Source of the DNA: a virus
Taxonomy: Duplodnaviria; Heunggongvirae; Uroviricota; Caudoviricetes
Reading direction: 5' to 3' (one strand)
Length of the DNA stretch: 64,000 nucleotides
Virus record (IMG/VR): IMGVR_UViG_2703718772_000011
Shown here: piece by piece, positions 27,891 to 40,452 of the stretch
Position numbering within the stretch: position 1 is the stretch's first letter
How the letters are laid out: the number at the start of each line of letters is the position of its first letter
Position numbers and translations under genes: made by a program
The notes under the pieces: model-generated
Database searches by the model: none
The model's input: the letters and a program-made list of their open reading frames with translations, nothing else
Told to the model about the DNA's origin: nothing

Positions 27891-28115
27891 ATGAAGCAAC
27901 ATCCGAATAAGCATATTCAAGCAGCCATTGACTATGCATTAAGTAAAGGCTGGATCTGGGTAGCAGCTGGTGGTGCTGCACATTGTTTTTGCAGACTGCG
28001 ATGCGGTAATCCAGAAGGTGAACACAAAACTCACCAAATGAGCGTATGGTCGACTCCGGGTAATCCCGAAAACCATGCCAAACAGATCAAACGAATGGTT
28101 GATCGTTGTAAATGA
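27891..28115 (+). CDS. small His/Cys-rich protein (74 aa; HicA-like toxin candidate, unverified)
   Basis: First gene after the promoter; KGW...GGAAH pattern loosely HicA-like. Confidence 0.5.
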   Translation: MKQHPNKHIQAAIDYALSKGWIWVAAGGAAHCFCRLRCGNPEGEHKTHQMSVWSTPGNPENHAKQIKRMVDRCK

Positions 28116-28175
28116 TTTCAAGGCGGCATTAGCCGCCTTTTGCAGAAACTGTCCAACTATCTTCAAAGGAAAACT

Positions 28176-28739
28176 ATGGCGCTTTATAACTTCACTCTGA
28201 CGCTCTCAGGCGTATCGTATGAGACGGAAGGACTGGAAGACGCGCTGTACCAAAACGGCTGTGACGATGCGCTAATTTGCGCATATGGAAACTCCGTCTA
28301 TGTAGAATTTGACCGCGAAGCACAATCACTTGATGCAGCTATCGCATCTGCGGTCGACAATATTGAATCAGCCGGTATCGGTGCAATTGTTGAATCCGTC
28401 GACTCGGCTCTTGTGGGCTTAAGCGATATCGCGGAACTGACAGACCTGTCTCGCCAGGCAGTGGCGTTGCTCAAAGACGGTAAGCGCGGAAGCGGCGACT
28501 TCCCTTGCCCTGTACAACGCATAAAAGGCCAGTCTCCTCTCTGGGATTGGGCTGATGTGGCTGAATGGCTCATGAATAACGGACGACTTAAAGAGGGCGA
28601 TCAAATTGTCCAAAATGCCCGAACTTTGAGTAAATGGAATCTGGCGCTTCGAAACAGCGTCTCGAAAGATTTCAACGAAATAGAGCAAATTGCGGAGAAA
28701 CTGATTAAACGCCGCAAAGATATTGCGAAATGCGCATAA
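28176..28739 (+). CDS. HTH-containing protein (187 aa; HicB-like antitoxin candidate, unverified)
   Basis: AAGGA RBS then Met at 28176; helix-turn-helix-like LSDIAELTDLSRQAVALLKDG. Confidence 0.5.
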   Translation: MALYNFTLTLSGVSYETEGLEDALYQNGCDDALICAYGNSVYVEFDREAQSLDAAIASAVDNIESAGIGAIVESVDSALVGLSDIAELTDLSRQAVALLKDGKRGSGDFPCPVQRIKGQSPLWDWADVAEWLMNNGRLKEGDQIVQNARTLSKWNLALRNSVSKDFNEIEQIAEKLIKRRKDIAKCA

Positions 28740-28740
28740 T

Positions 28741-28772
28741 GATGCCCGCCAATTGGCGGGCATCTGTTCTCT
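28741..28772 (+). terminator. hairpin terminator (gatgcccgcc-aatt-ggcgggcatc)
   Basis: Perfect 10-bp stem 2 nt after the stop; weak T-tract. Confidence 0.5.
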
Positions 28773-28855
28773 GTAAAGGTGTCTGGCATCGTCTGGTTCG
28801 TTAACGTTTACTAAACCAATGGTGACAAAAATTAGTTATCTTTGAAAAATAAAGG

Positions 28856-28884
28856 TTGCATGAAAAGAAGGGGTATGCGTTAAT
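28856..28884 (+). promoter_or_regulatory. candidate cspA-type promoter (TTGCAT-17-GTTAAT) with AT-rich upstream element
   Basis: Hexamers resemble the E. coli cspA promoter as I recall it; would give a 5' UTR of about 180 nt. Confidence 0.4.
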
Positions 28885-29068
28885 AGCATCGTTGGTTTGC
28901 AAGACAGACCTTATGTAAGCAGTTTTAGTAAAGCAGTCTCAGTTCAGTGTTATCTTCTGATTTCCCTTCTTCGTGAGTCTCCTCCTTAAGTGCCTAAGTA
29001 AGTCCCAATCTATACAGATCAAATTCTCGCCGCACTATGTGGCTCACAAAATTAAGAAGGTAATATCT

Positions 29069-29284
29069 ATGTCTAATAAAATGACTGGTTTAGTAAAATG
29101 GTTTAACTCTGATAAAGGCTTTGGCTTTATTTCTCCTGCTGATGGCAGTAAAGATGTTTTTGTACATTTTTCGGCAATTCAGAGTAATAATTTCCGCACT
29201 TTGGAAGAAGGCCAGCAGGTCGAATTCTCTATCGAGAATGGTGCTAAAGGCCCAGCAGCAGCAAATGTCGTTGCTCTAAGCTGA
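29069..29284 (+). CDS. cspA: cold-shock protein CspA family
   Basis: [38 protein letters not shown]..., near-identical in pattern to E. coli CspA; start at the internal Met preceded by AAGAAGG. Confidence 0.9.
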
Positions 29285-29559
29285 TTCAACGCTGATGATC
29301 CTCATTTCTACAATAACGAAGACGGTGTAAGCCTGAGTGGATAGATTTGTAGGATTGTACAAGTTGAATAAATTAGCATGGTAAGGCCATGCTAATTAAA
29401 TCGACACAACGGCCAGTTTATTCCATAAAAGTGAATTGCCCATTGTGGCGAAATGCGGGGTTGCCGCATGAATAGTCAAAGGCAGAAGCTAACTGCCGGC
29501 ATGGCAAAACAAAGTGCGTAAGAGGAGTGACTTCCTCAACAAGCGCCATAATTCTTTAT

Positions 29560-29587
29560 AAACCCGCCAACAGGCGGGTTTTCTTTA
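29560..29587. terminator. terminator hairpin (cccgcc-aaca-ggcggg-ttttcttt), probably bidirectional
   Basis: Between convergent cspA island and dnaE stop. Confidence 0.6.
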
Positions 29588-32500
29588 TTACTTATTTATT
29601 GTCTCCGCGATATCAGCCAGAATGGCCTCCAGTCGCTCTCCTTCTTCCGGTCGGAAGTACAGGATATTCGGGTTAAATCCGTAGAAGACGGTTGCATCAA
29701 GCTCTGGGAAGTACTCCTTACGACCAATCAGATCTGATGGTTTACTCTTATTGTTAAATAGTGCGGTTGAACGACTACCACACGTCAAAATGTAGGTCGG
29801 ACGCACCAGATTGATCTCTTCACGTATAAAGTCGGTGAACTGGCCGATCTCGTCTTTGGTATAGTCTTTCTCTTTGTCCTTAACCTTCTTACAAACACCC
29901 GTGACATAAAGATCGCCCATGCGCAGATCTCCAACTGTCAGTAGTTTTGCCTTAAAGTCGTCGTATCCGTTCTCCATGAAGTAGCCGGTACGAGCGTCAT
30001 TGCCGTTCGCATTGTCCAGAATGATCATGATTTTGGGTTTAATACCAATAGTCGGGCGTATCAACTCCTCACCCAAGCCCATTTCAGCCGCCATACGTGT
30101 CATGAGTACGTTGATTTCGGCAGAACGCTTAGGATTCATTTCGAACGGACGTGATGCTTTAACAGCGTCAATGATGAGATTGCCCATCAGCTCAGCTTGG
30201 TCGCGCAGTCGTTCAGGATCAGTTGCTGGCAGACTGCCTGGCTCAATTGACGCAAAAGCCCCTACTTTATGAAGCGACTCGCGTACACGACTGTTACATG
30301 CACGCTTCTCGACCGCTTCATCGAATTGTGCCACTGACTCGAATTTGCCACCAACTTTCTCACGCGCACGCATAATTGCCTGACAACCATTTTCAGAACA
30401 GCCTTTCACAGCAGAGAATGGCGCATACAGTGCCTGACTGCCGTCTTCGAGTGTGCGGATCTCAATTCGGTTAGATGACACATTAACGTCTGGTGGCAAT
30501 ACGCGAATGCCATAGGTCAGCGCATCCTTCACCAGCCCCTGATGCTTATCCTCGCCCAGAATGGTGAGCGCAGCTGCGAAGAACTCAGCAGGGTAGTGCG
30601 TCTTTAGCCACATAGACTGATAACTGATTAAAGAATAAGCAACGGAGTGTGATTTATTGAACTGATAGGCTCCGTTTTTCTCAAATGCGGTCCAGATCTC
30701 CTTCGCTTTCATCTCTGATAGCCCTGGATGTGACGCTGTAACGCGTACTGCGTTTATAGGTAGTTTTGCGCCGTGCTCAAGTGCCTCTTCGACAGTTTTC
30801 AGAGTTCCGTCTTCGCATTTAAAATGTTCCGCACGGTGAATGCGCTGTGTAGTGCCATCTTCCAGCTCAACGTCTATCCAGCCAGCTTGAGCCTGAACGA
30901 TGAACTTCTCGCCCATGCTCTTCATTTTTTCCATGTTCTTCTTACCGATTGCGGAACGCACAGCGTCAGCTTCAGCCATTGTGAAGCCGGCAAGCAATCG
31001 AGTCGCGTTCATCGTCTGTTCCTGATAGAGAATCACGCCATTTGTTTCCGCGGTAAGTTCATCAAGAACGGGGTGTAATGATTCCGGCGTCATAAAGCCT
31101 TTGGCGACAGAAACATAGTCATCCAACATGCCTGATTGAATTGGCCCCGGCCGGAAGAGCGCAGTTGTAGCGACGACCGTTTTAAAGCTCATTGGCTCAA
31201 TTCCACCACCTAAATCTTTAAGCAGCTTGCGCATTGGGCCTGATTCAAGCTGGAAAACACCTTGAGTGTACCCAGCAGCAAAACCATCCAGCACCTTGCG
31301 ATCTTCAAGAGAAATGGCATCAAGATTGATATCTTCACCTGTGTTCTCTTTTATGTAGCGTTTTGCACTATCGAGCAAATCGAGAGTTGCCAGGCCAAGC
31401 ACGTCCAGCTTAATTAGGCCCATAGCCTCGCAGTAACGCTTGTCAAATGCGATACAACGCGCGTCACCACGGCGCTCAACCGGTGTACGTTCTGTCAGAG
31501 GAACACCTGCTACGATCATCCCTGCCGCATGTCTACCAAAGCCACGCATAAGGCTTTGTAACTTGCAGGCTGCATTGAATGCATCAGGATATTTTGTTGC
31601 GTATTTGTCGAGACTTGCCAGTTGTTCGCGCAGTTCTTCCAATGGAAGGCTATCATCCTCAGCGTTCTTCAGTTCTTTTGATACCGCCATATCTGCGGAC
31701 TCCACACCATAAATACGAGCGGTATCACGTAGTGCAGAGGCTGCGCCCAGGTAGGTGAAGTTCGGAATACCCGCAACGTAATCTTCGCCGTAGCGTTCAT
31801 TCAGATACTCGATCACCTCATGGCGACGTGCCTGGCTGAAGTCCAAGTCCGCATCCGGCAAGTCGAGACGCTCAGGGTTGATGAAACGCTCAAACAGAAG
31901 ACCGTGACGGATTGGGTCGACGTTGGTTATGCCTATGCACCACGCCACCAGAGAACCGGCAGAGGAACCACGACCAGGCCCAACGGGAATGCCAGTTTCA
32001 CGACTATGATTCATCAGATCGCGTACCATCAGGAAGTAACCACAAAATCCCAGGCGAGTCAGCGTGTCCATTTCGTACTTTAGCCGCTCAACATAAACCC
32101 TGTTCTCTGAAGCAGGTGGTGTGTATCCAAACTCTTTTGTGGTAAGACGTTTACGCAGCCCTGCAACAGCCAGTTTCATAAGCGTTGCAGGCTCGTCGTC
32201 TGCCATCTTTGGCAGTGCTGGCGGCAATTCATGCCAGCGCCATGTGCAGGCATCGATAATGGTATCCTGCGTTGTTGAGGCCATTGCAGCTGTTACCGGC
32301 ACATCCATGCGAACGGAGAAGGCTTTAAGCGCCTCAAGGAGATGGCGGCGACCATTGACGGCGTTATCTCGCTGGTGGGGGATACGCAGACGATGCGGCT
32401 GGTCGATTTTGATGTTGTTCGTAACCATGTGCGCAATGTCTTTAATGTCTGCATCGTCGATCGATTCGTAATAAGCGGGATAGAACGCCACTGGCTCTAT

Positions 32501-40205: not shown

Positions 40206-40282
40206 TGGTGCCGGTTAACGGGATCGAACCGCTGACATCCTGCTTACAAGGCAGACGCTCTACCAACTGAGCTAAACCGGCA
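40206..40282 (-). tRNA. tRNA-Thr (anticodon TGT)
   Basis: Acceptor tgccggt/accggca, D-arm agctcagttggtagagc, anticodon loop cttgtaa, T-loop ttcgatc, CCA encoded. Confidence 0.85.
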
Positions 40283-40285
40283 ATT

Positions 40286-40372
40286 TGGTGGGGAGTGATG
40301 GAGTCGAACCACCCGAGTCGCAATGACAGTAGATTTACAGTCTACCCCGCTGCCCCTACGGACTAACTCCCC
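40286..40372 (-). tRNA. tRNA-Tyr (anticodon GTA), long variable arm
   Basis: Acceptor ggggagt/actcccc, anticodon arm gtaga-ctgtaaa-tctac, T-loop ttcgact, CCA encoded. Confidence 0.8.
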
Positions 40373-40377
40373 TAAAT

Positions 40378-40452
40378 TGGCGATGGTGGGTGGATTCGAA
40401 CCACCGACCAGTTGGTTAACAGCCAACTGCTCTACCGCTGAGCTACACCATC
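40378..40452 (-). tRNA. tRNA-Asn (anticodon GTT)
   Basis: Acceptor gatggtg/caccatc, D-arm gctc-agcggta-gagc, anticodon arm gttgg-ctgttaa-ccaac, T-arm ggtgg-ttcgaat-ccacc, CCA encoded. Confidence 0.9.

Follow-up and report, generated by a model that had tools for sequence, protein, structure and literature searches.

A cspA-type cold-shock gene cassette with a conserved 3' RNA domain on the phage-plasmid pLF82/Cyrano

The csp locus of pLF82/Cyrano

The DNA analysed here, which we refer to as the window, is a stretch of 64,000 nucleotides from IMG/VR virus record IMGVR_UViG_2703718772_000011, and it contains a small gene for a cold-shock protein (csp) together with the signals that are predicted to govern its expression. 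The window belongs to the Escherichia coli LF82 plasmid pLF82, which is the same element as phage Cyrano, an SSU5-like phage-plasmid: 861 bases around csp are 100% identical to both Cyrano (OV696614.1) and pLF82 (NC_011917.1), each of which is 108,379 bp in length. Cyrano has been described as an SSU5-like phage-plasmid of adherent-invasive LF82 that forms siphovirus particles and has a copy number of ~5.5 per cell (PMC9928086).

The locus comprises a terminator-like hairpin at its left border, an AT-rich tract followed by a promoter, a long 5' untranslated region (UTR), the csp coding sequence (CDS), a perfect hairpin of 11 bp, a five-helix RNA domain, and an intrinsic terminator that is shared with the convergent dnaE gene (Table 1). 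We propose that these parts make up a functional, cold-regulated csp moron of pLF82/Cyrano, a reading to which we assign a probability of about 0.7.

Table 1 Features of the csp cassette and its surroundings. Positions are those of the window, except where a comparison locus (L number) is given.
Feature	Position	Strand	Remarks
T4 gp32-like single-stranded DNA-binding protein (SSB), then UvsY-like mediator		-	left part of local gene order
Two-gene unit before csp	27891-28115 and 28140/28176-28739	+	
Terminator-like hairpin GATGCCCGCCAA/TTGGCGGGCATC	28741-28764	+	directly past the stop codon of the upstream gene; left cassette border
AT-rich UP-like tract ttatctttgaaaaataaa	28836-28853	+	from sequence
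Predicted sigma-70-type promoter	-35 TTGCAT 28856-28861; -10 GTTAAT 28879-28884	+	17-nt spacer
cspA-type 5' UTR	28891-29068	+	178 nt; RF01766 alignment starts at model position 1
Cold-box hairpin GGUUUG-CAAGA-CAGACC	28894-28910	+	from alignment of leader motifs
C-rich, G-poor tract	~28950-29010	+	C/G ratio 2.25
Shine-Dalgarno AAGG	29057-29060	+	
csp CDS	29069-29284	+	ATG 29069, TGA 29284; 71 aa, single cold-shock domain
Perfect 11-bp hairpin AATTAGCATGG/CCATGCTAATT	arms 29371-29381 and 29387-29397	+	loop TAAGG (5 nt)
Five-helix RNA domain	29405-29551	+	147 nt, in csp 3' UTR
P1, long hairpin	29406-29446	+	
Closing helix, four pairs	29447-29450 with 29544-29547	+	encloses P2-P4
P2 hairpin	29453-29469	+	
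P3 hairpin	29481-29497	+	invariant AAGCUAA loop, 29486-29492
Invariant single strand AAAGUGCGUAAG	29511-29522	+	
P4 hairpin	29522-29537	+	
Intrinsic terminator AAACCCGCC-AACA-GGCGGGUUU, then UCUUUAUU	29560-29590	+	terminator scan (29560-29581); shared with convergent dnaE
dnaE	stop codon 29588	-	convergent with csp cassette
3' domain, E. coli K-12 cspB-ynfU spacer	L009 3063-3224	-	
Single empty-site hairpin, plasmid p88COLEC-2	L005 2499-2528		

A distinct lineage of cold-shock protein

The csp product is matched by the Pfam cold-shock domain (CSD) family (PF00313) over residues 5–69 of 71 with a score of 115 bits against a cutoff of 27 (E = 1.4e-33), and by PHROG 729 (cold shock protein). It contains both the RNP1 (KGFGFI) and RNP2 (VFVHF) motifs, aligned with those of all cold-inducible K-12 paralogues, and it matches the CspA structure in the PDB (2l15) over residues 1–70 without a gap (E = 1.4e-32). 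A longer open reading frame (ORF) of 103 aa that begins at a GTG (28973) was rejected, as the homologues all begin with MSNKMTG and the leader recognised by the cspA mRNA family RF01766 spans this stretch.

The initial annotation had described the product as almost collinear with E. coli CspA, and the two proteins do align over 70 residues with no gaps. A comparison with all nine K-12 paralogues from the MG1655 record places CspG first, however, at 82.9% identity, followed by CspB (81.7%), CspI (81.4%), CspE (75.4%), CspA (72.9%), and CspC (72.5%), with CspD, CspF, and CspH each below 50%. The description of the gene as a host-like cspA is thus right as to family and as to its cspA-type layout, but the protein is closer to CspG, CspB, and CspI than it is to CspA. 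Judged by sequence comparison, it is a member of the cold-inducible CspA/B/G/I subgroup and not a CspA orthologue.

In the RefSeq plasmid records the gene is named cspG, since the protein exceeds the cutoff of the NCBIfam CspG equivalog model (NF007378). This is a marginal pass (146.6 bits against 144), and the NCBIfam CspA subfamily model is passed as well (140.2 against 130). The plasmid Csp proteins group together in a distance tree, in a clade of their own outside CspG, and the neighbourhood of cspG that is seen in K-12 and BL21 (divergent cspH, with ymcF-ymcE-gnsA downstream) was not found around the plasmid csp. With a separate clade and that neighbourhood absent, the name cspG is a best-match label that does not imply orthology. 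Compared with the host paralogues, as had been suggested as a check, the gene represents a CspG/B/I-like lineage that is specific to SSU5-like plasmids, and it is not a copy of the host cspA.

The nearest relatives of the protein are encoded on SSU5-like plasmids of Klebsiella (94.4% identity) and Citrobacter (88.7%), and in both csp lies beside dnaE. Between these copies, 27–34 of about 45 synonymous sites differ, which is near saturation, while dN/dS for the CDS is only ~0.04. We regard this lineage as one of two small points that are new, the other being the gap at csp in the curated Cyrano record: by sequence, it is a distinct Csp lineage under strong purifying selection, found beside dnaE on SSU5-like phage-plasmids of Escherichia, Klebsiella, and Citrobacter.

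Promoter and 5' leader

The promoter proposed in the initial annotation, TTGCAT and GTTAAT separated by 17 nt and preceded by an AT-rich UP-like tract, is present and aligns with those of cspA, cspB, cspG, and cspI. The alignment extends to the entire set of signals, that is, the UP tract, the -35 element, an extended -10, the cold-box hairpin, and the Shine-Dalgarno context. The extended -10 (TGcGTTAAT, 28876–28884) is formed by a TG at 28876–28877, the block ATGCGTTAAT is found again where K-12 cspB, cspG, and cspI align with it, and an AAAATAA block within the UP-like tract is common to the K-12 cspA, cspB, and cspG promoters. The TTGCAT hexamer is the -35 hexamer of cspA in the alignment, and both it and the extended -10 agree with the established description of the cspA promoter. 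The promoter motifs are kept in the Klebsiella and Citrobacter plasmid copies.

Just 5' of the promoter, at 28807–28818, csp codons 6–9 (TGGTTTAGTAAA; 29086–29097) are repeated in inverted orientation without a mismatch over 12 nt. This repeat could be what is left of a second csp gene in divergent orientation, the arrangement seen in the cspF/cspB and cspH/cspG pairs, or it could be due to chance.

A leader of about 180 nt that mirrors the cspA mRNA had been proposed, and the observed match is close to this. The alignment to RF01766 starts at the first position of the model, at 28891, seven bases past the -10 hexamer and thus at the predicted transcript start, and the full match covers model positions 1–428 with 187.6 bits, where the gathering score is 78. 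In the same search the K-12 controls score 500.8 (cspA), 159.3 (cspG), 158.8 (cspB), and 112.8 (cspI), and the scores of the plasmid copies are 211 (Citrobacter) and 200 (Klebsiella). Because the model includes the coding region, the leader was also searched alone, and it again gave a significant alignment (E = 6e-6), though one below the gathering score. Dissimilarity to cspA-type 5' UTRs had been named at the outset as an outcome that would speak against the annotation, and in both searches similarity is what was found.

The blocks that the leader has in common with cspA, cspB, and cspG are the cold-box hairpin, AGUAAAGCAG, GUUAUC, a pyrimidine-rich CCCUUCUUCGUGAGUCUCCUCC, a GCC...GGC hairpin, and AAGGUAAUAUCUAUG. 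Among these, the two hairpins, along with a AAGGUAAUA-N-AUG ribosome-binding context, make up the likeness to the cspA mRNA itself, from which the plasmid csp differs in the length of its leader (178 nt, against 159 nt in cspA). The terminator position of cspA in the model is left unmatched, since the plasmid csp mRNA is predicted to continue for ~300 nt after the gene.

The 5' UTR is 85% identical to that of the Klebsiella copy and 95.5% identical to that of the Citrobacter copy. Conservation of the leader, set against synonymous sites near saturation and the low dN/dS, indicates that the leader and the protein are both under purifying selection. In the pairwise comparison with the Citrobacter plasmid (L007 2100-2493), the leader at 95.5% stands well above the CDS (83%) and the promoter (74.5%), a contrast that would fit a leader under very strong constraint or else a mosaic produced by recombination.

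How leaders of this type work has been described for the chromosomal genes. As summarised in PMC12360218 from Delaleau et al. 2024, the homologous leaders of cspA, cspB, and cspG at 37 °C favour Rho loading while the ribosome-binding site is occluded; according to the same summary, the conformation adopted in the cold blocks Rho and exposes the ribosome-binding site, and the Csp protein, once accumulated, feeds back negatively on these genes. Rho-dependent 3' ends have been mapped in the 5' UTR or ORF of cspB and cspG, lying in cspB 80 nt before the ORF, and the rho(R66S) mutation raises the expression of cspB and cspG reporters (PMC7815308).

The 3' hairpin and the transcript end

The perfect 11-bp hairpin that had been noted after the gene (29371–29397) is confirmed, and it is unique: it occurs once in the window, with no match in 100 shuffles. 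We considered it as a terminator and as a repeated REP-like element and rejected both, as it lacks a U-tract and has a single occurrence. Its AT-rich stem is followed by AAAUCGACAC, and the terminator scan does not list it. The stem is kept in the Klebsiella and Citrobacter copies with two compensatory pairs (U-A to C-G and A-U to G-C), and these copies also contain two G.U pairs that allow pairing only on the + strand, in the sense of csp. The hairpin is conserved in the SSU5-like plasmid lineage only and is absent from prophage cspB cassettes.

By sequence, the 3' end of the csp transcript is most likely the intrinsic terminator at the right border, and the cassettes of K-12 cspB and of the Klebsiella and Citrobacter plasmids likewise have homologous terminators after the 3' domain. 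The promoter scan shows no promoter-like site between the csp stop codon and this terminator, which is the first good one after the gene, so a 3' UTR of ~300 nt is most likely for the csp mRNA. When folded, this 3' UTR is far more stable than shuffled controls (z = -6.1).

Conserved RNA structure after the csp gene

Homology between the cassette and cspB of K-12 and of the LF82 prophage Tritos continues through the 3' UTR. Identity is 53% just past the stop codon and 78% in 29406–29547, a region that folds into five helices. Occurrences of this domain were retrieved from public collections with two exact invariant core words, which identified 28 loci from species-representative genomes and more than 120 viral contigs. 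The genera represented include Escherichia, Shigella, Kosakonia, Enterobacter, Phytobacter, and Kluyvera, as well as Superficieibacter, Raoultella, Leclercia, Atlantibacter, and Pseudescherichia. Where enough upstream sequence was available, 130 of the 132 occurrences lie on the same strand as a CSD ORF, 153–220 nt past its stop codon, and these ORFs encode 30 distinct proteins that are 62–100% identical to the plasmid Csp. The corresponding distance in the window, from the csp stop codon to the P3 loop, is 198 nt.

One of the two exceptions, an IMG/VR contig (L116), has an IS3-family insertion sequence, with transposase ORFs of 99 aa and 288 aa, in place of csp, while the domain, terminator, and ynfU remain. 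In Raoultella lignicola (L026), the linker between P2 and P3 contains ~8 tandem copies of the 8-nt GAAAGCCT, and the helices are intact.

Base pairing within the domain is well supported by covariation. In an alignment of 23 distinct sequences, 96.5% of the cells in the five helices are standard pairs, and pairing falls to 21–52% in controls with slid partners. There are 12 two-sided pair changes, compared with 5.0 ± 1.4 in shuffles, and none of 500 shuffles reaches 12. The closing helix alone covaries among GUGGCG/CGCC, GUGGUG/CACCAC, and GUGAUG/CAUCAC. The structure is also favoured on the csp strand (96.5% pairing, against 90.7% on the opposite strand). The AAGCUAA loop and AAAGUGCGUAAG are invariant; as both lie within the search words, this invariance is in part due to ascertainment.

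A covariance model of the domain, termed R1, gives a single match in the window (29405–29551, 128.4 bits) and also matches after K-12 cspB, Tritos cspB, and the Klebsiella and Citrobacter plasmid csp genes. There is no R1 match at the cspA, cspG/H, cspI, cspE, cspC, or cspD loci, and in E. coli the domain occurs once per genome, after cspB. A search of Rfam returns no family at threshold for the domain; the sub-threshold matches (sroH, isrK, Trp leader, P9, and others) are driven by the terminator hairpin and were rejected. MG1655 RefSeq has no feature annotated between cspB and ynfU. A full-text literature search with the core sequence of the domain found nothing relevant, and neither did one on RNAs from the cspB 3' UTR and on csp in SSU5- or pHCM2-type plasmids, apart from the LF82 prophage paper.

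Several simpler explanations of the conservation were considered. Protein coding was rejected, because the region contains only short ORFs and one-base indels between the helices, in the P2-P3 linker and near P4, shift the frame, thereby excluding a conserved reading frame. A 12-nt complementarity between the CDS (29192–29203) and the domain (29510–29521) was set aside because it is not kept in K-12 cspB or Klebsiella. A sequence that the 5' UTR has in common with the 3' domain, AAGUGCNUAAG, is limited to the window copy (1 of 16 loci) and is probably due to chance, and RNAduplex predictions between these two regions give only meaningless full-length duplexes.

We put it at roughly even odds that the domain is an undescribed RNA family, with a specific function, on cspB-type genes of prophages and phage-plasmids across Enterobacteriaceae, including the unannotated cspB-ynfU spacer of K-12. 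The most likely options are a cis-acting domain for stability or processing and a regulatory RNA derived from the 3' UTR. In the former case it could influence what becomes of the csp mRNA in cold shock and afterwards, perhaps by blocking 3' exonucleases or by providing a site for processing. In the latter it might be the source of a cold-induced regulatory RNA whose AAGCUAA loop and AAAGUGCGUAAG touch a protein or target RNAs. A possible analogy is IpeX, a small RNA encoded just downstream of the nmpC moron of prophage DLP12, where a prophage cargo gene is likewise followed by a discrete RNA before the terminator; no sequence relationship was found between the two.

These data also raise the idea that it is partly or wholly the structured RNA of the 3' UTR for which the cassette is selected, with csp supplying its cold-regulated transcription. 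Covariation across five helices well above controls, the invariant single-stranded segments, and the bias toward the csp sense strand all speak for it, as does the nearly complete linkage to CSD genes in spite of Csp identities down to 62%. Additionally, no conserved promoter is seen between the stop codon and the domain, which is thus probably co-transcribed with csp. However, the conservation of the core owes something to the two exact words with which it was retrieved, and the strong purifying selection on the CDS shows csp to be no mere carrier, so we consider this explanation unlikely and prefer the cold-regulated csp moron.

Even so, of all parts of the cassette only the 3' RNA domain may be new in kind. 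It is also the more useful lead, as its presence in E. coli K-12 makes it testable in the best-studied cold-shock system.

Cassette borders and distribution

The left-border hairpin has perfect palindromic arms of 12 nt, as identified by both the terminator scan and repeat analysis, and the right border contains the same core, CCCGCCAAnnGGCGGG. The two similar hairpins, at 28741–28764 (GATGCCCGCCAATTGGCGGGCATC) and 29560–29581 (AAACCCGCCAACAGGCGGGTTT), delimit a segment of 818 bp. In p88COLEC-2, a near-identical sister plasmid of E. coli, there is no csp, and a single hairpin lies between the stop codons of the upstream gene and dnaE. A simple deletion between the two CCCGCCAAnnGGCGGG hairpins was rejected as the origin of this empty site, given that the left flank of its hairpin matches the right-hand hairpin and not the left-hand one. 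The suggestion in the initial annotation that the gene is carried on a phage-plasmid and is horizontally mobile gains support from this comparison, and from such sequence data the csp cassette is accessory and mobile.

Within PLSDB, the 3' portion of the cassette is found with an identity of ≥99% in 63 plasmids, and in 17 related plasmids the match is confined to the 40 bases closest to dnaE. Of the records from 5,426 complete E. coli genomes, 90 match at ≥99%, and those listed are SSU5-like plasmids. For all other E. coli records the best match falls in the 60–80% band, the closest being the Qin-type cspB at 74%; with no chromosomal match above that band, the csp is host-like in kind and not a recent copy from the host. 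No Salmonella plasmid is present among the 238 plasmid records with a match. In phages, Csp homologues were found in 85 of 50,697 records, and besides Cyrano only one of these lies in the 90–95% identity band.

The cspB of Qin-type lambdoid prophages (K-12 b1557; TRITO_45 in LF82 Tritos) is thus the closest E. coli chromosomal DNA, with 74% identity over 28874–29341, and in construction the plasmid cassette resembles it most. It shares with the plasmid cassette the UP tract, the TGcGTTAAT promoter, the RF01766 leader, a 71-aa Csp, and a long 3' UTR with the structured domain (R1, 142–144 bits), and its terminator is AAACCCGC...GCGGGUUUU. The two differ in their surroundings. The prophage gene has the antiterminator Q on one side and the lysis genes on the other, and is accompanied by a divergent cspF and a convergent ynfU, whereas the plasmid gene, which has neither cspF nor ynfU, sits between a two-gene unit and dnaE in a replication module. 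They also differ in sequence: identity is 56% in the 5' UTR and 82% in the protein, the plasmid protein belongs to a separate clade, and the 29371–29397 hairpin is an addition that the prophage gene lacks. E. coli cspG (b0990) has the same -10 region as the plasmid csp, but it is not followed by an R1 domain. Expression of a chromosomal counterpart has been observed in the same host, as cspB and cspI of Tritos are expressed as morons in LF82 lysogens (PMC9928086).

Presence in some plasmids and absence in close relatives might be expected of a neutral passenger or of a decaying remnant with no current function. We find this highly improbable, since the ORF is intact with a dN/dS of 0.04, and both the leader and the 3' structures are conserved across genera with compensatory changes; a maintained, functional moron describes these observations better.

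The position of the cassette suggests a different beneficiary. The genes around it form a block for replication and recombination (a T4 gp32-like SSB, a UvsY-like mediator, a RecA-like protein, an exonuclease, and dnaE), and the place next to dnaE is the same in the SSU5-like plasmids of Klebsiella and Citrobacter. Embedded as it is in this block, and with its position beside dnaE kept in three genera, the Csp could serve the phage-plasmid itself, either by assisting the replication and recombination module as an accessory chaperone of nucleic acids or by acting as an antiterminator for genes of the element, and would in this way keep plasmid replication or phage transcription going at low temperature. 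Yet the cassette is a self-contained unit with its own promoter, a host-type cold-shock leader, and flanking terminators, it converges on dnaE and is not co-transcribed with it, and sister E. coli plasmids exist without it. SSU5-like records are also rare among the 85 phage records that carry a Csp. Taken together, these points make a role in the element's own replication or transcription a doubtful explanation, and we retain the cold-regulated moron that acts in the host as the preferred one.

Proposed regulation and significance

Given the homology of its leader to those of cspA, cspB, and cspG, the plasmid cassette would be expected to follow the same regulatory logic. In the mechanism that we propose, the ~0.8-kb cassette would be an autonomously transcribed cold-shock 'moron' of pLF82/Cyrano, in which a cspA-type sigma-70 promoter would drive a transcript of ~700 nt that extends from ~28891 to the terminator at 29560–29590. 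This transcript would consist of the 178-nt leader, the gene for a CspG/B/I-like RNA chaperone of 71 aa, and the structured 3' UTR of ~300 nt. At 37 °C, by homology with cspA, cspB, and cspG, the ribosome-binding site would be hidden and the C-rich Rho-loading tract exposed, with little protein made. Following a downshift in temperature, the leader would refold, lowering premature termination and decay and raising translation, and the accumulation of Csp would then turn the system off again. By analogy with the host proteins, the plasmid Csp would act as an RNA chaperone, adding to the CspA-family pool of chaperones and antiterminators in the cell from a multi-copy replicon (about 5 per cell). 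We infer the transcription start, the transcript 3' end, the cold induction, the Rho-dependent and autoregulatory steps, and the fitness benefit from these comparisons.

A number of observations weigh against this proposal. Most of the RF01766 score is contributed by the coding region, and the leader alone gives 28.4 bits (E = 6.3e-6, positions 1–159), which is significant, modest, and under the gathering score. Identity of the leader to those of K-12 cspA, cspB, cspG, and cspI is only 49–55%. Equilibrium folding at 37, 15, and 10 °C showed no temperature switch; as none was seen in the cspA and cspB controls either, the calculation is uninformative. A generic strict-consensus promoter scan misses the csp promoter, because it accepts only hexamers with an A as the second base of the -10. 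The cassette is missing from some sister plasmids and is hence dispensable for the element. Finally, the ENA record of Cyrano has no feature at csp (OV696614.1 50570-50782), only a gap between CYRAN_49 and CYRAN_50, and the gene is therefore not in the published table of LF82 prophage morons.

As for significance, prophages are already known to carry csp genes with cspA-type leaders, namely cspB, cspI, and cspF in Qin, a PHROG family for such proteins exists, and RefSeq already labels the plasmid csp, so the central finding enlarges a known class without establishing a new principle. It amends the curated ENA record of Cyrano, to which it adds the csp gene that was missing from the published list of LF82 morons. 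The maintenance of this Csp lineage points to a benefit outside the warm gut, for example in survival or in maintenance of the element at ambient temperature, and such a benefit could matter for the environmental persistence of adherent-invasive strains such as LF82.

Flanking genes

The two + strand genes that precede csp (27891–28115 and 28140–28739) are labelled in the Cyrano record as a HicA toxin and a HicB antitoxin. Pfam returns no family for either gene at E ≤ 0.01, and their PHROGs are, in that order, phrog_5923, of unknown function, and phrog_2620 ('excisionase and transcriptional regulator'). We regard their assignment as a toxin-antitoxin pair as insecure.

In the Klebsiella quasipneumoniae plasmid (L006 4438-5133), a NUMOD4/HNH homing-endonuclease gene adjoins dnaE, an extra ORF of 444 nt lies between csp and the homing-endonuclease gene, and the two-gene upstream unit of E. 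coli is absent. A scan of the csp region for tRNA and tmRNA genes found none; elsewhere in the window, at 40206–40452 on the - strand, three tRNA genes are clustered, for Thr(TGT), Tyr(GTA), and Asn(GTT).

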